The notes below the pieces were generated by a model, which saw only the letters and a program-made list of their open reading frames with translations, did not search any database and was not told where the DNA came from. Below, piece after piece: positions 9,733 to 37,951 of a stretch of DNA of 64,000 nt. Origin of the DNA: Ignavibacteriaceae bacterium. GTDB lineage: Bacteria > Bacteroidota > Ignavibacteria > Ignavibacteriales > Ignavibacteriaceae. The position numbers and the translations under genes were made by a program. The stretch is taken from contig JALNWB010000001.1 in NCBI GenBank assembly GCA_023231105.1, forward strand, positions 18,276-82,275, given 5' to 3'. Positions within the stretch are counted from its first letter, which is position 1. Each line of letters begins with the position of its first letter.

Positions 9733-9772
9733 AAACACAATTTACCGGCGCGATGTTGGTGAGGTTGCGGAC

Positions 9773-17513: not shown

Positions 17514-19313
17514 ATGAACATATTTTTAGACGAAAGCGCAAAAAATCCCAAAGATACCGAAGAACATGTACAAAGTACGGAGGAATTGTTAGACGGTATG
17601 ATGATGGATGAAGCGTTGCAAAAACGTTTGAACGAGCAAGGAAAATCGGGGGGAATAGTTTTACCGCTTGCGGAGGAGATGAATTCCGTATTACAAGAGA
17701 TTGAAGGTTTTAATTTTGAATATTCCGGACAGCAAAGGATCATCAATTGGGAGAACATGGATGTGCCGTACCGTGTATTAAGACGGGCAGGCAATACTGA
17801 AGCGGGAAGATTGGTGAAGAACCATCGGCGGCTTGGTTTGTCGCAATATGGAAGAGTCCCAAAGGCGGACGGGATACAAAGAGGCGGCAGGCTTATCTTT
17901 TGTGATCCAGATTATTCACCCACGAAAGATGAAAAGTTAAGGTTAAGAATTTGGGAAGATAAGATTTTTAAGAATTTCTTTTTCCCGGCAAACGATAGAT
18001 GGGCGAACTTTGCAAAGTTTATTGGGAACGCTTATGAGGATTGGTTTGATTATGATGACATAACTTGTGAGATTAGGCGTGACGGATTAGGCGACCCGAT
18101 AGCGATGCATTTGCAAGACCCGATTATTTATAAACCGGTTTTGAAGAAGAGCAGGGTTTATCCTAATTGGCGAGGCGAGGAAGACTATATGACACCTTAT
18201 CTTGAAGATTGGGAAACAATGGTAACAGGTAAACGGGCTTTTATTGGTGAGGATGAATTACCGGTAGAACCGGATTTTGTATTGCATTACAATAACATGC
18301 GATTAGGAGCAACAACGGATTATAACGTAAGAAAGTTCCACTTTTTTACCAGGAGCGATTTTAGGTTTACACAAAGAGGTTACGGGATAGTTGAACAATC
18401 TATTAACATTCTAACTTACATTATTAACGCGCTGAAGATGAACGCAAGTAATTTTATGAACAACAAATTACCCAAAGGATTCGTGCTATTCACCGGCGGC
18501 GGAATTGGAGCGCTTCAGCTAGAGAAATTGAAAAAGGTAATGAGCGCGTACATGGGCGGAACCGCGCCAAACCGTTTTCCGATAATGGGATTGAACAGCG
18601 AGAAAGGGGATGGGAAATGGGTAGGGATAGGCGGGAATAGTCGTGAGATGGAATATCATTTATGGATAACATTATTGTTTTCTATTTTTTGCCGGTTGAG
18701 TGGAACAGATCCGCGCGAAGTTAGTTTAGGCGCACACAGTGATGCAATTCGACCACAGAGTATAGGGGAAAAAAGCGCGGACGGAGTTGTAAACGAGAAT
18801 AGGGATATGGGTGAAAGAACTTTTCTTACGCATCTGAAAGATTCACTTAACGTTACGGATAAATACGGATTGAATTTATTTCAGCAGATCACTCAGATGA
18901 AAGTTGAGTTGGATTTTGCCGGGTTTGAAATTGAAGATAAGAAACTAAAGCAAGAAATAACAAAGTTGAATTTACAGACTTTCAAAAGCTTTAATGATGT
19001 TTTGGCAGAAGAGGACAAAGAGAAATACACGTTAATGATTGATGAGGAGACGAATCTTTTTGACATCCCCGGAGTAAATAGTGAAGTAATAAGATCTGCG
19101 GTTCAGTTTAAGATGCAATCTTTTTCAAATAAGCAAGCGGCAGAACAGCAGCAGCAGGCAGTTGGCAGTGATCAGTCGGCAGTAGGCAATGGTGAACAAG
19201 GACAGCCAGGAGGAGAGGAAGGGAGTGACGGATTAACTGAGGATGATAAGGCGCTAATTGAAAAATACAAAGGAGCTAGTAATGTTGAGATTGATAAGGA
19301 GTTGCAGCAATGA
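17514..19313 (+). CDS. portal protein (by size and position upstream of MuF-like gene)
   Basis: This 599-aa protein is the first gene after late element copy A. It is followed by a small ORF and then the MuF/SPP1-gp7-like gene, which is the usual portal-MuF arrangement. Its acidic Gln/Gly-rich C-terminal tail contains a CAGTCGG-type heptamer array. Confidence 0.7.
   Translation: MNIFLDESAKNPKDTEEHVQSTEELLDGMMMDEALQKRLNEQGKSGGIVLPLAEEMNSVLQEIEGFNFEYSGQQRIINWENMDVPYRVLRRAGNTEAGRLVKNHRRLGLSQYGRVPKADGIQRGGRLIFCDPDYSPTKDEKLRLRIWEDKIFKNFFFPANDRWANFAKFIGNAYEDWFDYDDITCEIRRDGLGDPIAMHLQDPIIYKPVLKKSRVYPNWRGEEDYMTPYLEDWETMVTGKRAFIGEDELPVEPDFVLHYNNMRLGATTDYNVRKFHFFTRSDFRFTQRGYGIVEQSINILTYIINALKMNASNFMNNKLPKGFVLFTGGGIGALQLEKLKKVMSAYMGGTAPNRFPIMGLNSEKGDGKWVGIGGNSREMEYHLWITLLFSIFCRLSGTDPREVSLGAHSDAIRPQSIGEKSADGVVNENRDMGERTFLTHLKDSLNVTDKYGLNLFQQITQMKVELDFAGFEIEDKKLKQEITKLNLQTFKSFNDVLAEEDKEKYTLMIDEETNLFDIPGVNSEVIRSAVQFKMQSFSNKQAAEQQQQAVGSDQSAVGNGEQGQPGGEEGSDGLTEDDKALIEKYKGASNVEIDKELQQ
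19152..19193 (+). repeat. tandem heptamer array, CAGTCGG type (6 units), inside the portal gene
   Basis: The units are CAGCAGG CAGTTGG CAGTGAT CAGTCGG CAGTAGG CAATGGT. They encode QQAVGSDQSAVGNG. Confidence 0.85.
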
Positions 19314-19597
19314 TAATTATTAAAATTTGGGGGCAGAAAGTTTTAGAAGTTGAAGGAATTGAAACAAAGGGAACGGTAAATAATTTTCATTATGCTAATT
19401 GCGTGTTTGGGCAGCCTATTGTTGCAACAATGAAGAGTGAGGGGGCAACGGCACAGCGAGAGGTTAAGAGAGAAACAATATCCGAAGAAAAATATCTTGA
19501 AATGGTTAAGAAAGTTTCGGATAAAACCGGTTTTAATGCAAGTGAAATAGAATGGATTTTACGTACAGCCGAAGGATATTTGGGAGGAGTTGAATAG
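19310..19597 (+). CDS. hypothetical protein
   Basis: It is coupled to the upstream gene by a 4-nt overlap. Confidence 0.5.
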   Translation: MIIIKIWGQKVLEVEGIETKGTVNNFHYANCVFGQPIVATMKSEGATAQREVKRETISEEKYLEMVKKVSDKTGFNASEIEWILRTAEGYLGGVE

Positions 19598-20649
19598 TGT
19601 TAATCTCACCGCTTGACGGAAAAATTCTGCATTTAAAAGAATTAGGAATGATTGAACAAATCCTTTTTGAAGAGGTTATTTCTCCCGAAGATTTTTACAA
19701 GGAACTAACATCATTTCTAAAGAAGAATTACGACCTTGATAGTAGGGCGATGTTTACCACACAGGAACTTGAGCAGGTTGATTCCTTTATTAAAAATTAC
19801 TTTACTACAAAAATAAACGAAGCGAAGGTTTGGCTTTTACGCGCGTATGTAATGGGGCGATATTTAGCGCATACCGATCTAACCGGGAACATCTTCAGAC
19901 TTGGGAATTTAAGCAGCTTACCAAAATATGTAACGGACGCGGCAAAGCAGTACGGACTTAGCATTGAGGAGGCAATGGCATTACAGCAGGCAGTAGAAGA
20001 AAGCGCCGTGCTGATGACTAACACAACGCAGAGCACCATCCAGACAGTACGTGAGGCACTTGTTGAAAACGTTAAGACACGAGGGGACGGGAAAAAGTTA
20101 ATTGGCAAGTTGCGGGAACTTTGCAAGGATGACGTGGGCGAAATTAATAGGAATTGGAAAAGGACAGCAATTACTGAAGCCAATTATATTTTTAATAACG
20201 GTTTTATATCAATGCAGGAAGAAGGCGCTTATGTTGTTGGACTAAGCATGCCGGATGCTTGCGGATTTTGTGCCGCTGAGATTAACGGGCAAGTTTTTAA
20301 AGTAAGAAAAGATATTCCGCCGGATTACACAACTATGAAGGGAGCGGAATATGAGAAGTGGGCGAAGGTTTGGGAAACTGAAATTTGGGTAGGTAAAAAT
20401 AATTACGGCAGAAGTACAAGCAATCGTAAACGGATTGATAAGCACAGAGGGAATAAGGAAGATAATTTGCGGGAGAAAGAACATCATGAACATTCGATGC
20501 CCGTTTGCCCGGCACACCCAGAATGTCATTGCAGATGGGTTGGTATTAAACCGGAGTTTATGTGGATTGACGAACATGGACAAATGAGGGCACGGGTTGA
20601 AGATGAAGATAAATGGCAAGAATGGTACGAGAATACAATTACGAATTAG
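19597..20649 (+). CDS. MuF / SPP1 gp7-like minor head protein
   Basis: NWKRTAITEANYIFNNGFISMQEEG matches the R.ARTE...A.N.G signature. The C-terminal HPECHCRW corresponds to the HPnCRC motif. A GTG start follows GGGAGGAG. Confidence 0.85.
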   Translation: MLISPLDGKILHLKELGMIEQILFEEVISPEDFYKELTSFLKKNYDLDSRAMFTTQELEQVDSFIKNYFTTKINEAKVWLLRAYVMGRYLAHTDLTGNIFRLGNLSSLPKYVTDAAKQYGLSIEEAMALQQAVEESAVLMTNTTQSTIQTVREALVENVKTRGDGKKLIGKLRELCKDDVGEINRNWKRTAITEANYIFNNGFISMQEEGAYVVGLSMPDACGFCAAEINGQVFKVRKDIPPDYTTMKGAEYEKWAKVWETEIWVGKNNYGRSTSNRKRIDKHRGNKEDNLREKEHHEHSMPVCPAHPECHCRWVGIKPEFMWIDEHGQMRARVEDEDKWQEWYENTITN

Positions 20650-22057: not shown

Positions 22058-25000
22058 ATGTTTTTATATAAGTTACCGGATTATGAAGGGGGATTTGTTA
22101 CTAAATCTATTGAGTGCAATTGCATAGTAACAAGAGATGCAAACGGGCACTTGCTGGACAGTAAACCGGTTAATTGTGTAAAGAAGGGAGTGAAAACAAA
22201 TTTTGGAAAGGTTGTGGATTATTCGAAGAATTTTGTAATTCTGAAAAAAGGGACTGAGCTTAAAAGGGTGAAAAGGGAAGTTCTGAATAATATTTTGTTA
22301 AAGAGTTTGGAACAACCCGAGATAACTTTAGAAAAGATAAAGGTATCGGGAAAATTTAATACACTTGCGGGGAAAGTGTTGGTAAAAAGTGAAAGTGAAA
22401 TTGTTAGGGATGTATTAACTGATCCCGATAAAGTTTTGAGTAAGGGGAAAAGTGTTATTTTTTCTAAGACGATAAATGGGAAAGAGGTTGAGGCTAAGGT
22501 TGAGAAAACCTCAATGTTTATGAATACGTTTTTACATAAAAGTATAACCGTAAAGGAAAGTGTTGCGGCGAAAAGAATTTTAATAAAGGGAATTGCAACA
22601 ACGCTTAGAGCGCCGAAGGTGTTTAATATTCAGTCGGCAGTCGGCAGTAGGCAATCGACAATGGGTGGAACTGCATGGAACGCGAAAGGGGGAATGAAAC
22701 CGAATCATAAGTACATTGAACGGAAACCGGCGAAAAGTGGAGACGGGTATATTTATCTGTATGAACTCCCTTCCGGTAAAAAGGAATGGAGAGATGAAGC
22801 GGGAAAAGCTGTTGAGGGGGGACAGACGAGCGCCGATTATCAGTTGGAAGATTTTAAGGTGGGCGACATTGTTAGGCAGGATAATAAACTCGGCCGGATA
22901 ATGGAAGCATCAACAAATATGCTTGCGGTAAATTTCGGCGGGGAAATGAAGGTGATCAACAAAAAAGAGCATGTTGAAAAGGTTAAGCAGCATCAACTAA
23001 TGAAGGAAGGGGCCACGATGCAGTATGAGGGGAACGATGCAAAGATATTGAGGATAACCGGCAAAGCGGCATTGATAAACACGGCTGATAATAAGCTAAA
23101 GGTGATCAATCTTGAAAAGCAGTTGGAGAAATACGAACCGAAGAAAGAGGAGAAACGGTTAAATAAATACAGTGATGTTTACCAGGGTGAAGCGGAGCGA
23201 AGGATAGGGAGCGGGGGAGCGGATAATTACAACATCAGTTATGAAGAGCAGCCTAAGTATAAAAATTTTGTTGACGCGGCGAAGAAAACGGGATTTGGGA
23301 GAAAGAACGATCTTGAAATGGTGAAGCGCGTTGAAACGGAAAACGGGCTTAGAACGGTAAGGTGGAACTATAACCCGGAGGATCAGAATATTAGTTTTAT
23401 GGTTGACGGGAAAGAAGATTATACTATGAATTTTATGGGGAAGAAGTATAAAATAAGGGATATTACGGAAGACGGTTACAGTTTGGAAGATGCAGAAACT
23501 AAGGAACGGGGATTGTTCCTTTCTCACAAAGATTATAATAATGATTTGAAACAACAAAGAGACGAGGAGAGAAAGAATGTTGTAGTTGAAAGAACGGGAG
23601 GGGTGAACGGATTTGAAACGGTTAAAGAACCGGCGCGAACTTTTAGGTTTAAACCGGAATACAGTGATGAAGAAAAAGAAAGGTTTGAGAAACGAGGGGG
23701 AAGAAGACCGAGCCGATGGACGCGAAGAAAAGATGAACCTTTGCAAAGCGAAGAGGAGAAGAAACGATTAACTGAATTGCAGGACGAGAGGGATAAAAAG
23801 AATAAGGAAGTTTTGGGAACGAAGGATTTTGCAGACTTTGAGAAGTTACACAAAGAGAGAGGCTTTACAATTGGTGCAAATAGATTCCATGCAGCAAAAG
23901 AAATTGAGGCAGGCGGAAGAACATTCAGAATAAAGAGTGAGTTTAAGCCGGAGAAAATGAGCTGGCAGACTTCCATCGATGGACCTGTTAAGAAATTGCA
24001 GTTGGGAGAAAAACATTTACCGATAACGGATATTTCAAAAGATAAAGTTTTCTACCACGAAGGGGGGGATGAAAAAAGTATAACCTTTGATGAGTTGAAA
24101 ACGATTAACGGCAAGAGTTTGTTTGAACCCACAAAAGAGAGTAAAGGAATTGTAAGTAATTTAGATCCGGTGAAGATATATTTTGACGATAAAGATGTAA
24201 CGAGCGGGACTTATGAAATTGTTGAAGCTAATGAAATAATTGCTTCCCACAAAACGGATGGAACGCCAAACAGAGATTACACGATATCAGACGCGCAAAA
24301 TAGAGACCGCAGCACTCCGCAAAGTATTGCACAAATAAACAAGATCGCAGCGAATCCGAATTTTGACTTTTTAAGCGACAGTAAGACCGCGCAGGACGGC
24401 GCACCCATTGTTGATGAAGATTATAACGTAATTGCCGGGAACGGGCGGGGAATAGGCGTACAGCTTCATTACAGCAACAAAGGGGAGAAGTATCGAAATG
24501 ATCTGTTGAAAAAGGTTGAGAAGTACGGTTTTAGTCGAGACGATGTTGAGAAGATGAAACAGCCTATTTTGGTAAGGCGAACGAATGTTGACGCAAAAGA
24601 GGCGCAACGATTGGGAGCAATTAGCAATACCTCACAGATGCTTGCAACAGAGGAACGGGAAGCGGCAAAAGGAAAGGCAACAAGAATTGATGACGCTACA
24701 ATAAATAATTTAGCCGATATGTTCACAAAAGGGAACCATGAATCACTTAATCAATATTTGGATGAGATTGGACCGGATGTGGTAGGTGAGTTACTGAAGA
24801 AGAAAATTATCCCGGAGAATGAAGCGCACTTGTATATTGACCCGAAGAGCGGGAAAATGGATGCAGGGCACAAAGAAAAGGTTAAGCAAATATTAACGCA
24901 ATCGGTTTTGGGAGAGAGCAGTAAGCATTTTGAGAAGATACCGGAAGCGGCGAGAGCGGGAACGGTTAAAAGTCTTGGAGATATTTTTGCGCTGAAGGGG

Positions 25001-27154
25001 AAAGCGGGTGATCTTGTTCCTCACTTACAGGAAGCGATAAAGGTTTTAGCAAAGTATGAAGCGGTTAAGAATAACTTTAAATCGCCGGATGATTTTGTTA
25101 AGCAGGCGGCAAATGACGCATTTGAACCGTTGAAAGGAAGTAAAGAAGGATTGGCTTTATTTGATCTATTAGCAGACCCGATAAGAGAAGTAACGAAGGA
25201 AAACGGAAAGAAGGAAAAGAAAAACGTAATAAGTGATTTTATCCGTAAATATAAGTTAAGTTTAGAAGGGGATATGTTTGGCGAAGGCAAACCGGCGAAG
25301 GAAGCGTTTGATGAAGTGTTCAAGCCGAGGTACGAGAAGGGAGTGAATAAGAGTTTGTTTAGCAGATTGCGTATATTTGGTAAAAAAGTTTTTATGAAAT
25401 CTGTTGATACGACAAAGAATATTTTAGCGCCGAGTAAAAAGAATCCGGGTGTAAAACGTTGGCAAAAGGTTGAGAGCGGAAAGTTGAAAGTTGCAAGTGG
25501 AAAGGTTGAGGATAAAACACAAGTGACAAGTGACAAAAAGCAAGGGGAAGAAAAGATACGACTAAAAGATGTAACAAAATGGCATGAATACACAAAAGGA
25601 AGAATGATTGAAACAATTAGAAAAAATGCCGTAGAAGGATTAAATAAAGAAATAGATAAACATCAAGCAGAAATCAAATCATATGTATATGTTCCCGATC
25701 CTTATGATTTTCGTGATACAGAGAACCCAATAGAAATTAGTTTCTCGGGAAAAGAAAAAACAGGACAACCTATAATTATCAGGAATGGATTTGAATATAA
25801 ATTTGCATATCAGAGCAATAAATACGATAGATATGATAGATCACTCACAGATAAAGAGATGCAAGAAAAAACAGACAAGAAGAAAAAAGACATCCAATGG
25901 TTGATTGATTATAATAAAAAGAAAATTGACGATATTAATAATGGTTTGATAGATAATAAATTGTTTGACGAAGAGCAGAAAAGAATTGCAAAAGAAAAAG
26001 ACGACCGAGAAATTGAAATCGCAAATAAATTCTATCCAAGTAAAAGTCTTTCCCGATCTTTAAGGGATATAACAGGAAAGAAACTAGGTTTGTCTTTGCA
26101 CGACTTTCATGATGCAAAGGGTAATTCGGCGTATATAATAACTGATAAATTTAAAATACGATTTTCTGATCATGAGAGTAGAACTGAACAGGATTTCTAT
26201 AGATTGGATGAAAAGGATAAACCTTTTCGTCCAGTTGAATATGAACCAGAGGACATTGACATAATAATTTACAAAGACCGGAGAGGGGACGCTGTTGTTA
26301 CAATCGATGGGAATAACTATGGAATTGCGGATTATAATATTGATTCAATTGAAGATTTAAGCGAGTTCATACTTGAAAAGATAAATAAAAAAGTCGTTGA
26401 TTCCGTAGAACCAACGACTACAAATGAAAGCAAACCACAATCGCTTAAGACAGAGCCGAACGCTAAAAGCGGAGCGGATGACTTAGGCAGTGATAAACGT
26501 GCCGAAGCACAGACGAAAAGTAGTGAAGAGAAAGGAGAAAAGCAAATACCGCAAACGGAGACGGAGAATTTTAAGAAGTGGTTTGGGGAGAGTAAGGTAG
26601 TGGATAGTGAGGGGAAGCCGTTGGTGGTTTATCATGGCAGCAAAACACAGTTTGAGGTATTTGATAAAGTAAATGGCGAATCATCATCTTCCGGTAGATT
26701 TGAAGGGTTTCACTTTGGGACATTAGACCAAGCCAAAATGCGGAACGGTAAAATGGTTATGGCTCTGTTTCTAAAAGCTGAAAAATTACAACGGAGTAAA
26801 GATGAAGGAGGTAGGTGGTGGAAGAAAATTCAATCTGCAAAAAGTAGAAATTATGATGGCATAATTTATTTGAACAGATATGAAGGCATCCCTCTTGAAG
26901 AATATGATGAAGCAGAAAAACGAGGAGTTAAAACAGATGCCGATTCGCTTGATCGAATGAGTGATGAGCAATTTAGAAAAAATTTCCCATCAGCAAAAGA
27001 TAGCTATATCGTTTTTTCTCCAACTCAGATTAAATCCGCTATTGATAATGACGGAAGTTTTGATCCGGAGAATGCGGATATTACCAAGGGGACGAAAATA
27101 ACGAGGCGGATAATATTTAAGAAAAAGAAGAAGGATGAAACTTTTTTATTGTAG
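22058..27154 (+). CDS. polyvalent protein 1 (1698 aa): ParB/Srx-like domain plus C-terminal ART-PolyVal-like ADP-ribosyltransferase domain
   Basis: An HKYIERKPAKSGDGYIYLYE motif is present. A ParB-like block is present (YEIVEANEIIASH...QNRDR...INKIAANPNFDFL...GAPIVDEDYNVIAGNGRG). The C-terminus FKKWFGESKVVDSEGKPLVVYHGS...YIVFSPTQIKSAIDNDGSFDPENADI matches the ART-in-polyvalent-proteins signature as I recall it. Confidence 0.85.
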   Translation: MFLYKLPDYEGGFVTKSIECNCIVTRDANGHLLDSKPVNCVKKGVKTNFGKVVDYSKNFVILKKGTELKRVKREVLNNILLKSLEQPEITLEKIKVSGKFNTLAGKVLVKSESEIVRDVLTDPDKVLSKGKSVIFSKTINGKEVEAKVEKTSMFMNTFLHKSITVKESVAAKRILIKGIATTLRAPKVFNIQSAVGSRQSTMGGTAWNAKGGMKPNHKYIERKPAKSGDGYIYLYELPSGKKEWRDEAGKAVEGGQTSADYQLEDFKVGDIVRQDNKLGRIMEASTNMLAVNFGGEMKVINKKEHVEKVKQHQLMKEGATMQYEGNDAKILRITGKAALINTADNKLKVINLEKQLEKYEPKKEEKRLNKYSDVYQGEAERRIGSGGADNYNISYEEQPKYKNFVDAAKKTGFGRKNDLEMVKRVETENGLRTVRWNYNPEDQNISFMVDGKEDYTMNFMGKKYKIRDITEDGYSLEDAETKERGLFLSHKDYNNDLKQQRDEERKNVVVERTGGVNGFETVKEPARTFRFKPEYSDEEKERFEKRGGRRPSRWTRRKDEPLQSEEEKKRLTELQDERDKKNKEVLGTKDFADFEKLHKERGFTIGANRFHAAKEIEAGGRTFRIKSEFKPEKMSWQTSIDGPVKKLQLGEKHLPITDISKDKVFYHEGGDEKSITFDELKTINGKSLFEPTKESKGIVSNLDPVKIYFDDKDVTSGTYEIVEANEIIASHKTDGTPNRDYTISDAQNRDRSTPQSIAQINKIAANPNFDFLSDSKTAQDGAPIVDEDYNVIAGNGRGIGVQLHYSNKGEKYRNDLLKKVEKYGFSRDDVEKMKQPILVRRTNVDAKEAQRLGAISNTSQMLATEEREAAKGKATRIDDATINNLADMFTKGNHESLNQYLDEIGPDVVGELLKKKIIPENEAHLYIDPKSGKMDAGHKEKVKQILTQSVLGESSKHFEKIPEAARAGTVKSLGDIFALKGKAGDLVPHLQEAIKVLAKYEAVKNNFKSPDDFVKQAANDAFEPLKGSKEGLALFDLLADPIREVTKENGKKEKKNVISDFIRKYKLSLEGDMFGEGKPAKEAFDEVFKPRYEKGVNKSLFSRLRIFGKKVFMKSVDTTKNILAPSKKNPGVKRWQKVESGKLKVASGKVEDKTQVTSDKKQGEEKIRLKDVTKWHEYTKGRMIETIRKNAVEGLNKEIDKHQAEIKSYVYVPDPYDFRDTENPIEISFSGKEKTGQPIIIRNGFEYKFAYQSNKYDRYDRSLTDKEMQEKTDKKKKDIQWLIDYNKKKIDDINNGLIDNKLFDEEQKRIAKEKDDREIEIANKFYPSKSLSRSLRDITGKKLGLSLHDFHDAKGNSAYIITDKFKIRFSDHESRTEQDFYRLDEKDKPFRPVEYEPEDIDIIIYKDRRGDAVVTIDGNNYGIADYNIDSIEDLSEFILEKINKKVVDSVEPTTTNESKPQSLKTEPNAKSGADDLGSDKRAEAQTKSSEEKGEKQIPQTETENFKKWFGESKVVDSEGKPLVVYHGSKTQFEVFDKVNGESSSSGRFEGFHFGTLDQAKMRNGKMVMALFLKAEKLQRSKDEGGRWWKKIQSAKSRNYDGIIYLNRYEGIPLEEYDEAEKRGVKTDADSLDRMSDEQFRKNFPSAKDSYIVFSPTQIKSAIDNDGSFDPENADITKGTKITRRIIFKKKKKDETFLL
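22631..22665 (+). repeat. tandem heptamer array, CAGTCGG type (5 units), inside polyvalent protein 1
   Basis: The units are CAGTCGG CAGTCGG CAGTAGG CAATCGA CAATGGG. They encode QSAVGSRQSTMG. Confidence 0.9.
25470..25539 (+). repeat. tandem heptamer arrays, TTGAAAG type (6 units) then ACAAGTG type (3 units), inside polyvalent protein 1
   Basis: The first array is TTGAGAG CGGAAAG TTGAAAG TTGCAAG TGGAAAG GTTGAGG. The second, at 25519-25539, is ACAAGTG ACAAGTG ACAAAAA. Together they encode ESGKLKVASGKVEDKTQVTSDKK. Confidence 0.8.
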
Positions 27155-27773: not shown

Positions 27774-27794
27774 AATTAGGAATGAGGAATTATG
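27774..27794 (+). repeat. tandem heptamer array, AATTAGG type (3 units)
   Basis: The units are AATTAGG AATGAGG AATTATG. The last unit contains the ATG of the DPPY methylase. Confidence 0.8.
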
Positions 27795-28424
27795 CTTAGC
27801 GAAGCTTTTAATATTGATTGTATGGAAGGGATGAAACAGTTCCCCGATAAGTATTTTGAATTAGCTGTGGTTGACCCGCCGTATGGTTTGCCCAAAGATG
27901 CTGTACACGGTAGAGGCAAGCTAAAGGCGAGAGCAATAAATGCAATGGATATGGGATGGGATGTTGCCCCAAACGAAGATTATTTTAAAGAATTGTTTAG
28001 AGTTTCTGAAAAACAAATTATTTGGGGTGGAAATTATTTTGCGCTTATGCCTACAAGGTGTTGGTTAATTTGGGATAAAGAACAGCCTTTTGAAAATTTT
28101 AGCGCGTTTGAAATGGCTTGGACTTCTTTCGAGTCTCCGTCGAAAATTTACAGGCAAAGGACGGTTGAACCCGATCCAGATGGGAAAATCCATCCGACAC
28201 AAAAAACAATTAAACTTTACGATTGGATATTTATGAACTACGCAAAGCAAGGGGATAAGATTTTAGACACGCATTTAGGGAGTGGAAGCAGTAGAATATC
28301 AGCACACAAAGCTGGGCTTGATTTTACAGCGTACGAATTAGATAAAGATTATTTCGACAAACAGGAGAAACGCTTCAACAACTTTATTTCGCAATTGCAA
28401 TTAGATTTTGCGATTGCAATATAA
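27792..28424 (+). CDS. DNA N6-adenine-type methyltransferase (DPPY motif IV, small N6_N4_Mtase)
   Basis: Motif IV is FELAVVDPPYG and motif I is ILDTHLGSGSSRISAHKAGLDFTAYELD. Confidence 0.85.
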   Translation: MLSEAFNIDCMEGMKQFPDKYFELAVVDPPYGLPKDAVHGRGKLKARAINAMDMGWDVAPNEDYFKELFRVSEKQIIWGGNYFALMPTRCWLIWDKEQPFENFSAFEMAWTSFESPSKIYRQRTVEPDPDGKIHPTQKTIKLYDWIFMNYAKQGDKILDTHLGSGSSRISAHKAGLDFTAYELDKDYFDKQEKRFNNFISQLQLDFAIAI

Positions 28425-28436
28425 TTAGGAATAGGA

Positions 28437-28556
28437 ATGAACGGCAGGATGAGAATAGGCGAAGCTAGGTTTAGTTACTGGACAAATAGAGAGAGAAAAG
28501 AAGTTGCCGGGAATGAAGATCAATTTAATTTATTCACCCAGACCGAGGCAGCGTAA
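28437..28556 (+). CDS. possible small ORF (39 aa) coupled to the DarB-like gene
   Basis: The ATG follows TAGGAATAGGA, and the stop overlaps the next start (TAATG). It carries no motif. Confidence 0.25.
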   Translation: MNGRMRIGEARFSYWTNRERKEVAGNEDQFNLFTQTEAA

Positions 28557-31500
28557 TGAAATTATTTGGAATGACAATAGCAAAGAGTAAAGATAAACCG
28601 AAATTGCTTAAAGCATTCGGGGTAATATTAAAAGCCTTCGGTACGCAGTTAGGAATGTTTAATGATGAAGTGATTGAAGGGCAGACGAAGCAGAAAGACG
28701 GGCACAGCTATGTAGTTAAGAGAAGTAACAAGAATCCTCTTGTAAAAAGATTATTCAGGGCGGATAAGGAGGAGAGTAAGCCGAAGGAACTGAGTTTGTT
28801 TGATAAGAAAGTTACAGTAGGCAGTCGGCAATCGGCAGTCGGCAATCGGGCAGAAAGTAAACCACCGAAAGCGGAACCAATAAGACACACAGAGCAACCG
28901 GAAGCAAAGGACGATCTCTTCAATCAACCAAAGGAAGAGAGAAAAGAGCCGAAGGCAGAAATTAAAGTTGTTAAGGGGAAGAAAAACCGTAAAGAGATTA
29001 ACGCTAAGGTTGAGGAGTTATTAAAGACAAAGAAAAATGATGAGATGAGCGCTGAGGATGTTGAATTATTAGCGCAGTACACCGGACGCGGCGGATTGTT
29101 AGGAGATACGCTTGAGGATATCTCGCTTAATGAATTTTACACACGTAAGGATGAAGCGGAATTTATTTGGGATATGATAGGGAAGTTAGGTTTTAAGGGA
29201 GGAAATGTTTTAGAGCCTTCGATGGGAACGGGAATTTTTGTTGAGACAGCACCGGAGAAAGCGCTTGTAACCGGAATTGAGATTGAGGAGACGAGTGGAA
29301 GAATCGGACAGATTTTACACGGCAATGAACACGATATCAGAATTCAGAGTTTTGAACAGTTTGTAAAAGACTATGATAATATGGGAGCGGATTTAGAAGG
29401 GGGAGAATATGACGCGATAGTTGGGAATTGTCCGTTTGGTAAAAGGGGATTGAGCGCAATGGATGATAGGGAAAAGAGCGATATAAAATTCCATGAGCAA
29501 TATTTTATTGATCGAGGTTTGGATATGTTGAAGCCGGGGGGGATAATGGCAATGATCGTTCCAACAAGTATAATGGATAACCAACTTAATCAATGGCGGG
29601 GAGAGGTAAACAAAAAAGGGGAATTTTTAGGAGCAATACGAGTACCAACCGGAGCATTCAAACACACAGACGCGCAAGTAACCACAGATATAGTTTTCTT
29701 TAAGAAAAGACCGCCGGAAGTAATTGATCACTTGAACAAACTTTCCAAGGAAGAACTTGGGGAAGCTTATGACGATATGGTAATGGATGCTGATTTTGTT
29801 TCGGGGAATTTCTTTAAGAATAATCCGGAGTATGCATTGGGCACGGAAACAAGCGGAATGTTCGGAATGAAGATTTGGAAGGGAGATATTACAAAGGCTG
29901 ATCTTGAAAAAGTCGGTGAGTTATTAAACCATGAGGCAAGAGATTACAGCAGTTTAGGAATTGATGTTAGTAAATATGGTGAGTTAGAAAAAGAACTTGA
30001 ACCGGGAGATGTAAAGATATTAAACGGAAGAACTTACATACTTAATAAAAACCATAGATGGGAAAGATTGAAAGATCAGGAAGTAGTATTACAAAACTTA
30101 CCGGAAGACATTAAAAAACTTGGTATTACGAGTTGGGATGAATGGAGAATTAAGAGTGAGGACACAGCTTATTTATACGGTTTGGATAAGGACCAACTTA
30201 AACTTTTCGGACAAACAAGAATAGTTAATGAGCTGGATGGATACAACGGCAAGAATGATTTTCAGACGGAATATTTAACAAAGGGAGTTGTGTTAGGTTT
30301 AGCAGTAAAGGATTTCAGAAAAGAGTTGCAAGACGGAAGATTATCCGCTGAAGAGGCGCAAATGGAAGCGGGGAAACTGAAGATATTGCTAAAGGATTTT
30401 ATTGAAAAGTATGGACACCCGATTGAGAATTTAAAGTTAAATAAATTTTTTAAGAACAGCGGAAACGCGCCACTTCTTAATTTGGCAGGTAGCTATGATA
30501 AGAACGGCAACACTATCAAGATGTTTGATGATCCGCTGTCTTTTTATAAAGTTTATCAAACGAAGAGCGAAATAGGAACAGTTGATAGGAATAATATTGT
30601 TTCGGTAATCGGTTTTCTTTTTGCAAATAATTTTCCAACGGATTATCAAACGGTACGAGGCGAGTATGAGGGGGATGGAGATATTGAAAGAGAGCTTGCA
30701 TATAGCGATGAAATTTATTTTGATGAAGAAGGAAATTATAAACCGAAAGAGGAAGTCCTTTACGGTTACATTTACGAAAAAATTGACGCTTGGGAAAAGC
30801 AACGAACCGAACTGAAGAAGGAATCCAAGAACGAAAAGTTAAGCGATAAAGAAAAAGAACTTAACGCGCAAAAAATGCGAAAGCTCGAAGATCAGATAAT
30901 TGAGGCGAAGACGAGAGCGAATATCAGGGAGATTAAGCAGCTACCAATAATGTTAAGCGATGCAGGGAGTATTTACGATATTGGTATTTTAAACAAATAT
31001 TTGGAAGAAAAGATAGGGGCGCATTTCTTAGGTGAATTACGCAAAGATGAAAAGAGTGGTTTCATTCTTCCGGTTGATGAGAGTTCGGCAAAATTATATT
31101 TAAGTTATGCAGATATTACGAAAGAGGGGAAATCAACAGATGTAAAACGGGAATTGCGGGATCTCTTTAATAAAGATGAGCATCCGTTGTTATTTATGAT
31201 TTTAAATAAGATGAATGGATTAGGTTTACCGGCATTACGGACAGAGGAAGGGATTGCTAAGAAAGAACAAGTCTTACAACTTGAAACAGATTTTAAGCAG
31301 TATTTATCCGATAGTGAAGAAGCTGATAAAATTGCAGATACTTATAACAGGTTGTTTAATTCTTACATACAAAAAACGTATGATGAAAAACCGATAGAGG
31401 GAATAAAGCATTTTGCTTATGATAGAGTAGTTGGAAAAGACGCAAGCGGAAAAGATATAACCGGAAAAGATAAGGCGGGCGGGCATACTTGGGCAACGGT

Positions 31501-34500
31501 ACGCAGAATGTATGAACAGGGTAAGGGGATGATTGCTCACGGAGTTGGATTAGGGAAAACTTTGGAGGCATTAACTTTAACTTTATTAAGTAAAGAAACC
31601 GGAAGAGCAAATAAGCCTTGTATTGTTTCTCCGAAATCAGTTTTATTAAATTGGGTTGCAGAAATTGAGAAGTGGACACATGGAGTAAATTATTTATTAG
31701 TCGGTTATTCCAAAAAAAATGAAAGCGAAGGATGGACGGAAGAAAATACGATAGAAGATAGCCGCGAAGTAAAAGAATTGAAGTTGCAACGTGCGGCGAA
31801 CGAAGATTTTGACATGATTTTGATGAGTAGGGATTTATTCGGTACAATTGACTTTTCGCCGGAAACGAAAAAGAATATGCTTAATGAATTGATGGATAAG
31901 TATTACCCGGAGGGGAACCGGTTATCAACATTCTCTGATGGAGATAGTAAGTACGCGAAGAATGTGAAAAAGAAAAGAGATACGTTGTTAAGAAATCTTT
32001 CCGAAATGATGGACATACCGGAACCATTGGGAGGAGTTTATCTTGACAACATAGGAATAGATATGTTGGTAAGGGATGAAGCGCACGACACGAAGAACTT
32101 ATTAGTACCGATGGAAAGTGAAATTAGCGGAGTGAACAGCAGTACATCCCAACGAGCGATGCACAATTTATTTGCAAGCAAGATCATACGCGGACAAAAT
32201 AATGATATGGGATATTTTGGGTTGACGGCAACACCGATAAGTAATTCACCGTTAGAAGTTTTTAATATGATGGTGCCGTTTGCAGAGAAGGAACTTGAAA
32301 AATTACAAGTCCAAAATATGGATGACTTTGTTAGCAGGTTTGCCGACATTGATAATATCCCAACCACAAGTGCAGACGGAAGAGTTATAGTAAAGAATAA
32401 ATTCTCGGGCTGGAAGTCGGCCGAGGCATTAAGAAACACTTTCTTTAGATTTGTTGATTATAAGACAAAAGATGATGTTGAAAGCGTAAAGGCAAATATA
32501 AAATTCCCAAAAGAGAAAGCGGCAAATGTGCTGAGTGATTTGAATGAAGGGCAAAAAGAAATAGTGAAGCATTGCAAGTTAAGGTTATGGATGTTAAGCA
32601 GCCGTGTATTTGATAAGGATAATAAGACATGGGATTTTAATGCTGACAAGTTACAAGAAAAAGTAGGTGAGGGATTAATTAGCCAGGACGAAGCAACGGA
32701 AGTTTTGAATTATTTTAATGATGAATATTTACCTAAATATGAAGCATTGAATGCGAGGCTTGGTCCGGACGATACACCGAATGACGATCACTTTTTTAAA
32801 GTGCAGCAGGATCTAATTAAAGCAACGAGTGATCTGCCCTGGTATAAAGATAAGCACAGCGAATATTCAAAAGAAGTTGATGATGATTTGGTTAAACAAC
32901 ATAGCGATTTAAAGAAGTTCGCGCAGTTGAATGAGAGCGCATTATCAATACATAAGAGCGGGGGGAAGCAAATTATCTTTGCCATCAACACGGCATTGCA
33001 CGAAAAGATCAAAAATGATTTAGTGAAATCGGGAATACCGGAAAATGAAATAGTAATTGTAAACGGGAAAACGGTGAGCAGCTCGAGTAAAAGATTGCAG
33101 ATAAGCAAAGCTTACAATGATGGGAAATATAAGGTAGTAATAGGCAATTACGCAACTATGGGAGAGGGATTAAATTTTAACTATATGACAAGCGATATTC
33201 ACCATTTGCAACCGGCTTGGAACCATTTACAGATAGAACAGGGGAACGGAAGAGGGATACGGCAAGGGAATCCATTAGACAGTGTAAATACGCATTACTA
33301 TTTAACGAAGGGGAGTATTGACGGATTTATGAATACCAAGATTATGGATAAGGCGGGAATGGTTGATAAGTTCTTAAAGGGTGAAACGAGCCGTTGGGAT
33401 GACGAGGTTCAGCTAGAGGCGGATGAAATGATGATTGAGTTAGCCGATAATCCGGAACAAGCAAAGGCATTATTAGCTTTCAGAAATAAAAAATTACAAG
33501 ATGCACTTGCAGAGCAGCAACGGCAATCTAACTATAAACAGTTGGATAGATTGTATGAAGTGAAAAGAAAAAAATCGGGAATGGCAGAAAAAACTTCTAA
33601 ACAATATCAGATGATGGAACAGGAAGAAAGAAGTTTAACGGAAAAACTTATTGAAGCTAATTTTGAGCATAAAGGAAAACTTGATTATGATAGAACACCG
33701 GTAATACTACCAGGGATAAATAAAGTAATCCCGGTAGGTGGTATTTTAGAGGGGAAAAGCGGAGAGTTTTATGTTGTTGAAGATTATGCGCCATCGACCC
33801 AAAGAGTGAAGATAAGAACGTATAAAGCCGGAACGCAGGGTGATATGGTGGGAACCCGTGCGATAAGTGCAAAAGAACTAGACAAAGAATTTAACGCATT
33901 ACATAAAGAAACCGACTTAGATTTGGGAGGGATGTTCAAAAAAATTATTGATGATAATGAAGAAGTTGGAATTAATTTTATTAGCAAAATCCCAAAGGAA
34001 ATTTTGCAAATAAATAAAGTTAAACTGCTTGAGAAACTTAACAATACCGATGAAGTATTATATCAGACCATGGACGGTGATTTCAAAGTTGCAGATTACG
34101 AAAGCGCAAAGGATGAAATTGCAACCGAAGGAGGGAAGATAATTTTTCCGCAAGAGAAACCGGAATTCCCGAAAATATTAAATGAATTGATAAAACTGCA
34201 TAAACCAAAGCAAAATTGGGGAGAGGGTTATTATCAATTTAGAAAATATAAGAATTTTGCAACTTCTATTTATGGTGAGAACTATGAGAACGCAATTAAG
34301 AAAGAGATCAAACGGTTAAACGGTGAAGCAACTGAAACAAGTTTTGCCATCCATACAACCGGCGCGAAATATAAAAAGACATTGAAGGATTTAGCCGATA
34401 ATGGATATATGAATGATTACACTTATAAAAGGATAATGCAAGGTAAAGCTTATGATGAATTATCAGAATTTAGTAACGCGCTTAGGGCGGAGTTTTTTGA

Positions 34501-34672
34501 TAATTATAATATAAGACAACAAGATAAACACGGCGATTATTGGCTTGAATCCGGGAAGATAACACCCGAGATGTTAGATAGGGCGCGGGCAATTGATGAG
34601 ATAAAGAGTGATGACAACAAAGATTTATTAGAGGATATACTTACAAATAAACTAAGAGGAGAAGCGGCATAA
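28556..34672 (+). CDS. polyvalent protein 2 (2038 aa): DarB-like N6-adenine methyltransferase plus SNF2/DEAH helicase
   Basis: MTase motif I is VLEPSMGTGIF and motif IV-like is AIVGNCPFGKRG. The helicase motifs are GVGLGKTLEAL (I), LVRDEAHDTKN (II), GLTATPISNSPLE (III) and QIEQGNGRGIRQGN (VI). This architecture matches phage P1 DarB. Confidence 0.9.
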   Translation: MKLFGMTIAKSKDKPKLLKAFGVILKAFGTQLGMFNDEVIEGQTKQKDGHSYVVKRSNKNPLVKRLFRADKEESKPKELSLFDKKVTVGSRQSAVGNRAESKPPKAEPIRHTEQPEAKDDLFNQPKEERKEPKAEIKVVKGKKNRKEINAKVEELLKTKKNDEMSAEDVELLAQYTGRGGLLGDTLEDISLNEFYTRKDEAEFIWDMIGKLGFKGGNVLEPSMGTGIFVETAPEKALVTGIEIEETSGRIGQILHGNEHDIRIQSFEQFVKDYDNMGADLEGGEYDAIVGNCPFGKRGLSAMDDREKSDIKFHEQYFIDRGLDMLKPGGIMAMIVPTSIMDNQLNQWRGEVNKKGEFLGAIRVPTGAFKHTDAQVTTDIVFFKKRPPEVIDHLNKLSKEELGEAYDDMVMDADFVSGNFFKNNPEYALGTETSGMFGMKIWKGDITKADLEKVGELLNHEARDYSSLGIDVSKYGELEKELEPGDVKILNGRTYILNKNHRWERLKDQEVVLQNLPEDIKKLGITSWDEWRIKSEDTAYLYGLDKDQLKLFGQTRIVNELDGYNGKNDFQTEYLTKGVVLGLAVKDFRKELQDGRLSAEEAQMEAGKLKILLKDFIEKYGHPIENLKLNKFFKNSGNAPLLNLAGSYDKNGNTIKMFDDPLSFYKVYQTKSEIGTVDRNNIVSVIGFLFANNFPTDYQTVRGEYEGDGDIERELAYSDEIYFDEEGNYKPKEEVLYGYIYEKIDAWEKQRTELKKESKNEKLSDKEKELNAQKMRKLEDQIIEAKTRANIREIKQLPIMLSDAGSIYDIGILNKYLEEKIGAHFLGELRKDEKSGFILPVDESSAKLYLSYADITKEGKSTDVKRELRDLFNKDEHPLLFMILNKMNGLGLPALRTEEGIAKKEQVLQLETDFKQYLSDSEEADKIADTYNRLFNSYIQKTYDEKPIEGIKHFAYDRVVGKDASGKDITGKDKAGGHTWATVRRMYEQGKGMIAHGVGLGKTLEALTLTLLSKETGRANKPCIVSPKSVLLNWVAEIEKWTHGVNYLLVGYSKKNESEGWTEENTIEDSREVKELKLQRAANEDFDMILMSRDLFGTIDFSPETKKNMLNELMDKYYPEGNRLSTFSDGDSKYAKNVKKKRDTLLRNLSEMMDIPEPLGGVYLDNIGIDMLVRDEAHDTKNLLVPMESEISGVNSSTSQRAMHNLFASKIIRGQNNDMGYFGLTATPISNSPLEVFNMMVPFAEKELEKLQVQNMDDFVSRFADIDNIPTTSADGRVIVKNKFSGWKSAEALRNTFFRFVDYKTKDDVESVKANIKFPKEKAANVLSDLNEGQKEIVKHCKLRLWMLSSRVFDKDNKTWDFNADKLQEKVGEGLISQDEATEVLNYFNDEYLPKYEALNARLGPDDTPNDDHFFKVQQDLIKATSDLPWYKDKHSEYSKEVDDDLVKQHSDLKKFAQLNESALSIHKSGGKQIIFAINTALHEKIKNDLVKSGIPENEIVIVNGKTVSSSSKRLQISKAYNDGKYKVVIGNYATMGEGLNFNYMTSDIHHLQPAWNHLQIEQGNGRGIRQGNPLDSVNTHYYLTKGSIDGFMNTKIMDKAGMVDKFLKGETSRWDDEVQLEADEMMIELADNPEQAKALLAFRNKKLQDALAEQQRQSNYKQLDRLYEVKRKKSGMAEKTSKQYQMMEQEERSLTEKLIEANFEHKGKLDYDRTPVILPGINKVIPVGGILEGKSGEFYVVEDYAPSTQRVKIRTYKAGTQGDMVGTRAISAKELDKEFNALHKETDLDLGGMFKKIIDDNEEVGINFISKIPKEILQINKVKLLEKLNNTDEVLYQTMDGDFKVADYESAKDEIATEGGKIIFPQEKPEFPKILNELIKLHKPKQNWGEGYYQFRKYKNFATSIYGENYENAIKKEIKRLNGEATETSFAIHTTGAKYKKTLKDLADNGYMNDYTYKRIMQGKAYDELSEFSNALRAEFFDNYNIRQQDKHGDYWLESGKITPEMLDRARAIDEIKSDDNKDLLEDILTNKLRGEAA
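28815..28849 (+). repeat. tandem heptamer array, CAGTCGG type (5 units), inside polyvalent protein 2
   Basis: The units are CAGTAGG CAGTCGG CAATCGG CAGTCGG CAATCGG. They encode VGSRQSAVGNR. Confidence 0.9.
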
Positions 34673-36574: not shown

Positions 36575-37951
36575 TTGAATAACACGTTTGAATTTTTTGC
36601 ACCGGCTTATTTGGTTAAAAGCGGAAGTAAAACCGAACCTTACAAGGTTGGCGGAACAATTTCTACAGAGAACCGGGATACTGATAATGAAATAATGAAG
36701 AGTATCGATTGGAGTTATTTCACTTCCGGTTTTGGCAAAATTAAATACGAACATAAGGATATCCCAGAACCGCATTGTTTTATTGGCTTTCCGACAAAGT
36801 TAGGGAAGAGCGGGAAATCATGGAACTTTGAAGGAGAACTTGTTGCATACGATCCGGAATTGCCGGATGAGAAATTAACACAACAGCAAAAACTTGCAAA
36901 AAGCACGGTTACTCTTTTACAGCACATGGATGAATTTAATAAACGTCATCCAAATGCGATGCAAAAAGCGGGATGGAGTGTTGAGGGAGAATATTTGTCG
37001 AAAAGCAAGGACGGGGTTGTTTCGGCAAGAGTTGTAAATGTAGTATTTACAACTAAACCACGGAACAGAGAAACGTTTGCAAAATTAGTTAAGAGTTTAG
37101 AAGTGGGGTATGGAATGACACCCGATACACAAACGGGATTTGGGGCGACAAGAAAAGAATCAATTGATCATAACATTAAACTAAATGGAGTTACAAAAAT
37201 GGAAACGAAAAATGATGTGTACAAAAAATGCTTAGCCAAAGGGATGAAACCGGAAGAGGCTAAGAAAGCGGCTGATGAATTTGAAGCAAAGCAAAAAGGA
37301 GAGATGAACGAAAGTTTTGAGACCGCTGCAAAATCATTGGGCACGGCGAAATTATCTCTTCAAAAATCGCTTGATACAGCTAAATCAATCTCTGAAATAG
37401 AGTTTGAAGTTGATATTAAAGCGCAGGAAAAAAGTTTGCAAAAATCAATCGCGCTGATGAACAAAGGCGGAGAAGAAGCAGATATTTCCGATTACCTTGA
37501 AAAATCCTCTGAAATTTCTTTGAACGCATTGAAAGCGCTGGACGCAATTAATCAAAAAGTTGATCTGTTGGCAAAATCGATTGTTCTTTTAGCAGAAGGA
37601 CAGTTGAATCAAGTCTCAGGTGATGAACATTTGGTAAAATCTCTTGATTTGGTGAATAACCAAGTTGAAGATCAACGGATGGGACTTTTAACCTTGGTGA
37701 GCAAGCTTAGAAAAAGTACCGGCAATAATTTGTTGACCGACAATATCACTTTTGCTGAAAACAACAAGGATTTAGGGACAGGCGTAGAACTTAACAAAGC
37801 GCAAAAAGTAAAAGTGCTTGAAAAATTGGTTGCGGAAAAATCGGTTGACGAAATTGTTTTGGTTGACTTTAGCGCCGGTGGTACACAGGCAACTTTGCCG
37901 GAATCGGTTGAACAGTTGGTGAAATCAAAAGCTGTTGACATGTTCAAGTAA
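36575..37951 (+). CDS. prohead protease (HK97/S78-like) fused to coiled-coil scaffolding domain
   Basis: A TTG start follows late element copy B. KIKYEHKD is the His region, AGWSVEGEY is a G.S.G-type Ser region, and VVNVVFTTKPRNRETF corresponds to the evSlV..PAn strand. The C-terminal 270 aa are helical and Lys/Glu-rich, as expected of a scaffold. Confidence 0.65.
   Translation: MNNTFEFFAPAYLVKSGSKTEPYKVGGTISTENRDTDNEIMKSIDWSYFTSGFGKIKYEHKDIPEPHCFIGFPTKLGKSGKSWNFEGELVAYDPELPDEKLTQQQKLAKSTVTLLQHMDEFNKRHPNAMQKAGWSVEGEYLSKSKDGVVSARVVNVVFTTKPRNRETFAKLVKSLEVGYGMTPDTQTGFGATRKESIDHNIKLNGVTKMETKNDVYKKCLAKGMKPEEAKKAADEFEAKQKGEMNESFETAAKSLGTAKLSLQKSLDTAKSISEIEFEVDIKAQEKSLQKSIALMNKGGEEADISDYLEKSSEISLNALKALDAINQKVDLLAKSIVLLAEGQLNQVSGDEHLVKSLDLVNNQVEDQRMGLLTLVSKLRKSTGNNLLTDNITFAENNKDLGTGVELNKAQKVKVLEKLVAEKSVDEIVLVDFSAGGTQATLPESVEQLVKSKAVDMFK

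Follow-up and report, generated by a model that had tools for sequence, protein, structure and literature searches.

The 64,000-nt window analysed here (C1:18276-82275, contig JALNWB010000001.1) belongs to a draft genome of an Ignavibacteriaceae bacterium that consists of 307 contigs with a total of 4.19 Mb, contig C1 having a length of 119 kb. At 22058..27154 on the + strand, the window contains a gene for a phage-type polyvalent protein, a class of proteins described by Iyer, Burroughs, Anand, de Souza and Aravind in 2017 (J Bacteriol; PMC5512222). The gene is one open reading frame (ORF) for 1698 amino acids (aa) without an internal stop. Its ATG follows the stop codon of the preceding gene at a distance of 10 nt, an AGGA is found 9 nt before the ATG, and the N-terminus of the encoded protein, MFLYKLPDYEGG, is kept in relatives. 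In accordance with the class, at least two disparate domains are combined in this ORF, namely a DdrB-type ParB/Srx domain, an orphan module, and a C-terminal ADP-ribosyltransferase (ART) domain. An earlier interpretation made from the letters alone (the sequence-only reading) had placed a polyvalent protein with a ParB/Srx-like and an ART-like module at 24200-27100. The class was named correctly, and the range lies inside the polyvalent gene but covers only a part of it, as the gene starts 2.1 kb further upstream. About 715 conserved residues before the ParB domain and a module of about 300 aa between ParB and ART were absent from that description. The peptide blocks that it quoted are present where it had put them. 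In the ParB region, these are YEIVEANE (from aa 719, nt 24212), QNRDR (aa 747-751), GAPIV (from aa 781), and GNGRG (from aa 794, nt 24437), and in the ART region FKKWFG (from aa 1505, nt 26570), VVYHGS (from aa 1523), and SPTQIKSA (from aa 1654). With E values of 1e-26 for the Pfam family ddrB-ParB and 6.1e-15 for ART-PolyVal, these blocks are far beyond chance.

Comparison by BLAST with a set of 105 homologous proteins divides the protein into a conserved core, reaching from aa 1 to about aa 1100-1140, and a variable C-terminal third. The core consists of the N-terminal 715 aa, the ParB domain, and a further conserved stretch. Its identity amounts to 80-86% in five sister proteins (P0002-P0006) and to 41-50% in about 16 others (P0007-P0022). 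The N-terminal region (22058..24202, + strand, aa 1-715) is conserved as part of the core common to all relatives and has no match in Pfam, PHROG, or NCBIfam. The polyvalent protein as a whole has no match to the PADLOC defence models or in NCBIfam. A blastn comparison of the gene with 50,697 phage records gave no DNA match, and phage matches are found at the protein level only, with 24-32% identity to proteins of P1-like and other phages. Within the N-terminal region, a tandem of two beta-rich segments, each about 40 aa long, is located at aa ~266-349 (window 22850-23110), with the sequences KVGDIVRQDNKLGRI...VNFGGEMKVINK and MQYEGNDAKILRI...NTADNKLKVINL, respectively. Their sole match is a marginal one to SH3_15 (E 0.42), and they may be SH3/Tudor-like repeats.

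The DdrB-type ParB/Srx domain (24203..24583, + strand, aa 716-842) matches the Pfam family PF18763 (ddrB-ParB) over profile positions 7-120 of 121 with 93.9 bits. This is above the curated cut-off of 27.6 bits and bears out the assignment to the ParB superfamily in the sequence-only reading. The region also matches phrog_5143 (E 3.7e-37). Conservation of the motifs QNRDR (747-751), GAPIV (781-785), and GNGR (794-797) is seen in 46 homologues, in which R797 is among the best-kept columns. This residue lies in the string AGNGRG and represents the conserved active-site Arg of the superfamily (GxxR), which is also found in Prt of phage P7 (SGNGR). Candidates for the Asp/Asn that closes strand 2 (D786/D788) and for the Tyr of the family-specific helix (Y804/Y811) lie in conserved columns. 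The P7 protein Prt (995 aa), which is named a putative protease, shares 30% identity with the ParB region over 202 aa (E 5e-23), and the motifs QxRDR, GAPI..GNGR, and PxLVRR are common to both. The gene for Prt occupies the position of ddrB in the darA operon of P1. The ParB domain is followed by an extension of the core (24584..25339, + strand, aa 843-1094), which is conserved along with ParB in the relatives and has no Pfam match. The first ~70 aa of this extension are also conserved in P7 Prt.

The ART-PolyVal domain (26570..27082, + strand, aa 1505-1675) matches the entire profile of Pfam PF18760 (positions 1-140 of 140) with aa 1516-1668. The score of 56.6 bits exceeds the curated cut-off of 31.2 bits, so that the C-terminal ART postulated in the sequence-only reading is recovered by the profile. 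In a scan of the whole 4.19-Mb genome, the domain was found again with 62.3 bits as the sole ART-PolyVal copy. Membership in the ART-PolyVal family can be regarded as solid. Polyvalent ARTs belong to the Tox-ART-HYD2 clade and are defined by a His in strand 1, a Tyr in strand 2, and an Asp in strand 5 (PMC5512222). The corresponding positions were compared in a family alignment of 149 domain copies from 91 proteins. The strand-1 His is present as H1526 in the string VVYHGS (26633-26635; beta1, model strand 34-39), and His is found in this column in 130 of 133 family copies. The Asp is present as D1600 (26855-26857), which directly precedes beta5 (model strand 112-116) and is an Asp in 128 of 132 copies. 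The motif QIKS at aa 1657-1660 is almost invariant in the family. In beta2, however, the expected Tyr is replaced by H1552 (26711-26713; model strand 62-65). Across the family, this column contains Tyr in 58, Phe in 30, Trp in 24, and His in 17 copies. Because His, Phe, and Trp are all common there, the strand-2 feature seems to be an aromatic or planar residue, for which Tyr would not be strictly needed. The aromatic residue of beta3 is Phe (F1571, 26768-26770) in a column with Tyr in 101 and Phe in 21 copies. F1571 was also considered as a sign of inactivation, and this was rejected as Phe is found at this position in 21 of the 134 copies.

H1552 marks a subfamily of the polyvalent ARTs that comprises 17 of 134 copies (13%). 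This H-type subfamily has conserved residues of its own, namely G1554, R1562, R1579, D1582, Y1604, N1606, E1609, and S1649, of which R1562 is found in 88% of the subfamily copies vs 6% of the rest. The columns of H1526, D1600, QIKS, N1664, and G1666 are kept in all 15-17 aligned H-type copies at an overall identity of 30-60%. Members of the ART-PolyVal family also occur in tandem arrays, with up to 8 copies per protein in the aligned set and up to 12 copies per protein according to the original description of the class (PMC5512222).

An AlphaFold2 (AF2) model of the last 209 aa (aa 1490-1698) was built from 30 sequences and reached a predicted local distance difference test score (pLDDT) of 88.6 and a predicted template modelling score (pTM) of 0.82. 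Its elements follow each other in the order beta1 (with the His), beta2 (with the His), helix, beta3 (with the Phe), beta4, helix, beta5 (preceded by the Asp), helical insert, beta6, and beta7, and the modelled strand order appears to be the one expected of an ART. The sequence-only reading had stated that the ART assignment would fail if the structure prediction lacked an ART split sheet and profile searches gave no ART-PolyVal match. Instead, a profile match and an ART-like strand order in the model were obtained, with weak matches to solved structures. The 50 best matches of a Foldseek search against PDB were almost exclusively catalytic domains of PARP1, PARP2, PARP4, or tankyrase, with E values of 0.019-0.19 and template modelling (TM) scores of 0.26-0.37. 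The anti-CRISPR protein AcrIF11 (6kyf) was at rank 10 with a probability of 0.85 and a TM-score of 0.39 normalised to the target. Against the viral models of BFVD, Foldseek gave 55 matches at E <= 1e-3, of which the best had an E value of 3.8e-13 and most are named PolyVal ADP-ribosyltransferase. As judged from the model, the link to solved ARTs appears consistent but weak.

The variable C-terminal third is subdivided by three joints. Joint J1 (25340..25513, + strand, aa 1095-1152, SRLRIFGKKVFMKS...KKNPGVKRWQKVESGKLKV) is a basic segment of about 58 aa that closes the conserved core. The core alignments of the relatives stop at aa 1097-1165. At the nucleotide level, identity of the core to the sisters is 77-90%, with 82-85% up to about aa 1140-1150. 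According to jackhmmer searches, J1 occurs twice in P0007, P0008, P0017, P0019, P0020, and P0021, at further module boundaries, and it is also located near the N-terminus of P0115. In relatives generally, the segment is found again once or twice per protein where modules meet. J1 might serve as a joint for recombination, as a site of processing, or as a signal for packaging. Joint J2 (26387..26575, + strand, aa 1444-1506, ...NESKPQSLKTEPNAKSGADDLGSDKRAEAQ...KQIPQTETENF) is a low-complexity linker that is kept in relatives irrespective of the next module, with 89-97% nucleotide identity over aa 1444/1456-1506 to the loci L007, L008, and L009. This homology ends sharply at aa 1506 (gene nt 4516) with the string ...QTETENF, where the ART starts. 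Joint J3 (27077..27154, + strand) comprises the C-terminal tail (aa 1674-1698, DITKGTKITRRIIFKKKKKDETFLL) and the stop codon. J3, the adjoining intergenic DNA, and the beginning of the following gene show 84-86% nucleotide identity and are jointly kept in all close relatives.

Two exchangeable slots are located between these joints, slot A at aa ~1150-1444 and slot B at aa 1506-1674. In the sisters, slot A contains unrelated sequences in L008 and L009 and is missing in L007, which encodes P0003. Slot B of L001, which encodes P0004, also contains an ART, but the two ARTs are no more than 38% identical, as compared with 80% for the cores. The nearest ART (62% identity) is found in an unrelated protein of 2584 aa from another phage type (P0023, L011). 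In L007, L008, and L009, slot B is occupied by a module with an HExxH motif (SHEFAHILQH). This module has only a sub-threshold peptidase match (Peptidase_Mx1, E 0.036) and is peptidase-like by its motif alone. The HExxH alleles would thereby have the architecture of ParB plus metallopeptidase that has been described for P1 DdrB. P0005 and P0006 are without an ART, yet they keep the tail GNDGSFDPE.ADIT...KKKKK..TFLL. Mosaic domain content has been described for the polyvalent class (PMC5512222), and the cassette mosaic found here is therefore a clear example of it and no new principle.

Two further observations were made in the sisters. In L007, L008, and L009, a stretch past the stop of the polyvalent ORF shows homology to the final ~75 nt of the gene. 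In L008 (10231-10566), the conserved tail closes a separate ORF of about 105 aa that ends with ...TKSTKITRKIILKKKKRDETFLL. The detached tail of the HExxH sisters looks like a functional C-terminal peptide or a remnant of cassette insertion. In P0004 (L001 10001-14437), the ART is preceded at aa ~1138-1235 by a short segment KWYRGV...FYSADKEIA...GYDAIIYENG. This segment has no Pfam match and looks like a second, reduced ART-like unit in which Arg would replace the strand-1 His.

Slot A of the protein under study contains the orphan module (25610..26395, + strand, aa ~1185-1446), in which a helical part is followed by an alpha/beta part at aa ~1350-1446. With aa 1140-1500 as the query, HMMER was run exhaustively against 1.84 billion representative proteins and yielded 10 matches, about 8 of them credible, and two of the relatives form part of proteins with a length of about 2400 aa. 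The alignment of the relatives contains the invariant motif K-I-R-x-S-D/N-H-x-S-R-x-x-Q ... R-P-x-E ... E ... Y-N-I. These invariant polar residues suggest that the module may be an enzyme or a nucleic-acid binder. Its AF2 model has a pLDDT of 74.7 overall and of more than 90 in the alpha/beta part, and a comparison with PDB folds gave no match (best E 0.56). Neither the module nor its relatives match a Pfam family, and the module has no PHROG match either. In an hhalign comparison with the slot-A module of the sister P0002, only the last helix and the linker were aligned.

The gene is located among late/virion genes of a phage, between a portal-like gene and the genes for the prohead protease and the major head protein, which is a further property of the polyvalent class. 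The portal-like gene (17514..19313, + strand, 599 aa) matches phrog_11117 (portal, E 2.2e-7), and the syntenic gene of L012 has a faint Phage_portal match. It is followed by a gene for 350 aa (19597-20649), whose position is kept in relatives, with lengths of 349-353 aa in L001, L008, and L012, and by three small genes. Downstream of the polyvalent gene, there is a gene for 154 aa and a gene for a DNA methyltransferase (27792..28424, + strand, 210 aa) that matches Pfam N6_N4_Mtase (E 3e-9) and phrog_67 (E 1.3e-32). The next gene (28556..34672, + strand) encodes a second polyvalent protein of 2038 aa, which combines a DarB-like methylase with an SNF2 helicase. It matches phrog_11801 (E 2.3e-204), phrog_10089 ('DarB-like antirestriction', E 7.7e-105), and the Pfam families Eco57I and SNF2-rel_dom. 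After three further small genes, a head maturation (prohead) protease (36575-37951, + strand, phrog_1028, E 6.3e-18) and the major head protein (38020-39453, + strand, phrog_752, E 1.6e-65) are encoded. A consensus scan found no strong terminator-like site on the + strand between 21390 and 36381. The order of the portal gene, the gene for ~350 aa, the small genes, and the ParB polyvalent gene is kept in L001, L008, L012, and L013, down to 50% identity. At the left end of contig C1 (417-2430), a tyrosine integrase and a serine-recombinase-like gene are found, and the right end (97614-119398) contains PheT, a molybdopterin oxidoreductase, and YceG. Because of the integrase and recombinase genes on the left and PheT and other housekeeping genes on the right, the window is assigned to a prophage that is integrated and measures about 90 kb, whose right boundary is predicted to lie before C1:97614. 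A homologue of the polyvalent protein is present in one of 40 related host genomes, at 30% identity, and the distribution thus has the patchy pattern of a mobile element.

The gene probably encodes a DdrB-like internal head protein of this integrated temperate phage of about 90 kb, with a function as a packaged effector. Both the polyvalent class and its predicted injection have been described (PMC5512222). In phage P1, DdrB (108.7 kDa) and DarB were detected in the proteome of the virion head, and DdrB is a head protein that aids the incorporation of DarB into capsids (PMC9024508). The P1 homologues DdrB and DarB are virion proteins that are co-ejected with the DNA. By analogy, the polyvalent protein would be a late product that enters the procapsid in the manner of P1 DdrB and is subsequently ejected with the phage DNA. 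For the ParB domain, nucleoside triphosphate (NTP)-dependent binding or nicking has been predicted (Iyer et al., PMC5512222). After delivery into a new cell, this domain may bind or nick incoming or host DNA in an NTP-dependent manner and could thereby belong to an anti-restriction set of the Dar type. The ART would use NAD+ (nicotinamide adenine dinucleotide) for the ADP-ribosylation of a macromolecule of the host, the likeliest candidate being a defence or transcription protein as in the case of T4 Alt or AcrIF11. T4 Alt is a head-packaged and injected ART (PMC5512222). AcrIF11 (6kyf) is a validated ART of phages and plasmids with the catalytic residue D115, and it illustrates that a phage ART is able to disable a defence complex. 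Sister phages may swap the payload through recombination at the joints, and such an exchange would fit an arms race with host defences.

Several points weigh against this interpretation. We infer packaging and ejection from the gene position and the P1 DdrB/DarB precedent only, and the activity of the ART is likewise a conclusion by analogy. For the 350-aa gene past the portal, an identity as MuF found no support, with no match in Pfam, PHROGs, or NCBIfam, and the usual linkage to MuF is therefore not demonstrated. The ART model is only weakly similar to solved ARTs, and the sequence profile of the family matches only Tpt1/KptA in PDB (E 0.07, 45 residues). As His replaces the family-defining Tyr in strand 2 and Phe replaces the Tyr of beta3, activity is not assured. 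No biochemically characterised member of ART-PolyVal turned up in the literature searched. Finally, this allele is without the HExxH peptidase module that could separate the domains after delivery.

The protein agrees with the polyvalent class in being a large multidomain protein with disparate enzymatic domains, of which DdrB-ParB and ART each count as a hub domain in this class, in being encoded among late/virion genes, and in the mosaic domain content between related phages. It differs from the class in that this allele is without a zincin metallopeptidase (MPTase) domain and is not fused to MuF, in that it contains a module matching no Pfam LPD or other model, and in its clean two-slot arrangement with joints that are conserved at the nucleotide level. 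The sequence-only reading had called the C-terminal region the hallmark of the ART of polyvalent proteins. An ART-PolyVal domain is indeed present, but the wording overstates the novelty because ParB plus ART in one polyvalent protein is a common and described architecture; more than 20 proteins of the homologue set carry both Pfam domains. The features to keep are the His-type subfamily of the ART, the orphan module, and joints that are well defined.

With P1 DdrB (Prt in P7), the protein shares the ParB family and a DarB-like methylase-helicase gene close by, and the sister alleles P0002, P0003, and L008 end in an HExxH module, as described for DdrB. P1 DdrB is an internal head protein, and by its gene content the locus parallels the capsid-packaged and co-ejected Dar system of P1. 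In contrast to DdrB, about 715 aa without a match in DdrB precede the ParB domain, the C-terminal module is an ART instead of a metallopeptidase, and host and phage lineage are unrelated to P1. From the full Dar set of P1 (DarA, Hdf, DdrA, DdrB, DarB, and Ulx), only a DdrB-like (ParB) and a DarB-like protein were recognised. The small neighbouring ORFs have no family match in Pfam, PHROG, or NCBIfam, and no homologue of DarA, Hdf, DdrA, or Ulx was identified. The ART domain corresponds to ART-PolyVal/Tox-ART-HYD2 (PF18760) in its full-length profile match, the His of beta1, the Asp before beta5, the C-terminal QIKS..N.G, and the polyvalent setting, and deviates from it by the His instead of Tyr in strand 2 and by belonging to the H-type subfamily (17/134) with conserved residues of its own. 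T4 Alt and AcrIF11 are experimentally shown phage ARTs that can serve as working models for the modification of host proteins, Alt being head-packaged and injected. AcrIF11 is an ART of the H-Y-D type with a catalytic Asp and is among the structural neighbours of the ART model; unlike the present domain, it is a small stand-alone early protein. Alt belongs to the R-S-E clade and has no homology to this ART at the sequence level. From neither of them does information on the target carry over to this ART.

A further-reaching interpretation concerns the orphan module and the joints and is put forward only tentatively. The orphan module may represent an undescribed family of effector domains, i.e. 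a phage-delivered enzyme or nucleic-acid-binding payload. The protein would then be a two-slot delivery chassis, and its joints (J1, the J2 linker, and the KKKKK..TFLL tail) would be dedicated recombination and/or processing and packaging signals for the swapping of payloads.

For the ART-like domain, it is unlikely that it is a catalytically dead pseudo-enzyme, which would act as a binding or structural module (sensing of NAD+ or ADP-ribose, or docking of targets) in a packaged protein. The replacement of the strand-2 Tyr of the H-Y-D family (PMC5512222) by His and of the beta3 Tyr by Phe would agree with such a role, and so would the tandem arrays of up to 8 copies in the aligned set and 12 in the literature (PMC5512222), which are unusual for an enzyme, and the lack of biochemical proof for any ART-PolyVal member in the literature searched. 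However, His, Phe, and Trp are all common at strand 2, as set out above. In addition, H1526, D1600, QIKS, N1664, and G1666 are kept in all 15-17 H-type copies, and this conservation despite identities of 30-60% points to a constraint on the pocket.

An ART that is active, as the packaged-effector interpretation supposes, might also have a different type of substrate. The H-type ART could act on nucleic acid (phosphorylated RNA/DNA ends or bases), like Tpt1/KptA or DarT, and not on a host protein. Tpt1/KptA is the only sequence match with a solved structure, and the beta2 His of Tpt1 aligns with the column of H1552. Moreover, the H-type subfamily adds the basic or polar residues R1562, R1579, N1606, and E1609, and the fusion partner ParB and the neighbouring methylase and DarB-like helicase are all DNA-directed. 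We nevertheless consider this quite improbable, as the Tpt1 match is marginal with its 45 residues at E 0.07, the structural neighbours are protein-modifying PARPs and AcrIF11, and the family has been placed in the Tox-ART-HYD2 clade, a relative of protein-modifying ARTs (PMC5512222). That the polyvalent protein is not injected at all, and instead acts in the lysogen or producing cell (superinfection exclusion or abortive infection) or has a morphogenetic role only, is very doubtful: the element is an integrated prophage, host-retained polyvalent proteins could turn against incoming elements (Iyer et al., PMC5512222), and the documented role of P1 DdrB is the loading of DarB into capsids (PMC9024508), but the gene lies within the run of head genes with a 10-nt gap upstream and no strong terminator-like site nearby, its position is conserved across relatives, the PADLOC defence models have no match, and the homologues from P1 belong to the virion and leave it along with the DNA.

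The locus is a compact and well-delimited case, in which a DdrB-like chassis with two exchangeable payload slots adjoins a DarB-like partner. Polyvalent proteins are thought to be one of the main routes through which phages bring in ready-made counter-defence enzymes at the time of infection, and to our knowledge almost none of them has been tested. The sister phages provide natural 'allelic' variants of the payload, which is an ART, an HExxH peptidase-like module, or none. Accordingly, the locus is a reasonable system for studying the target of a PolyVal ART and whether the type of payload tracks the defence content of the host. The current picture of the polyvalent class is unchanged by this locus.

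A third large protein (1342 aa) is encoded at 42357-46385 of the window, and Pfam places a Zeta-toxin/AAA_33 kinase domain in its region aa ~1010-1172 (E 1.7e-11), so that the prophage encodes at least three big effector-type proteins. The N-termini of the DarB-like protein (28556-28760) and of the Zeta-domain protein (42357-42560) are xFG-rich leaders, with MKLFGM...KAFG... and MIITLFGKSIKFGK..., respectively. Both proteins also hold short J1-like strings (KNPLVKR; RW...SGKLKVESGK). An N-terminal packaging leader common to the polyvalent, the DarB-like, and the Zeta-domain protein was considered and rejected as unproven, since BLAST of the N-termini was empty and the J1 profile was blind to them. 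Elsewhere in the window, two ORFs (3049-4806 and 9605-11629) carry weak PHROG labels as 'terminase large subunit', and the first of these (3049-4806) corresponds by Pfam to a HerA/DUF87 and Zot-like P-loop ATPase.

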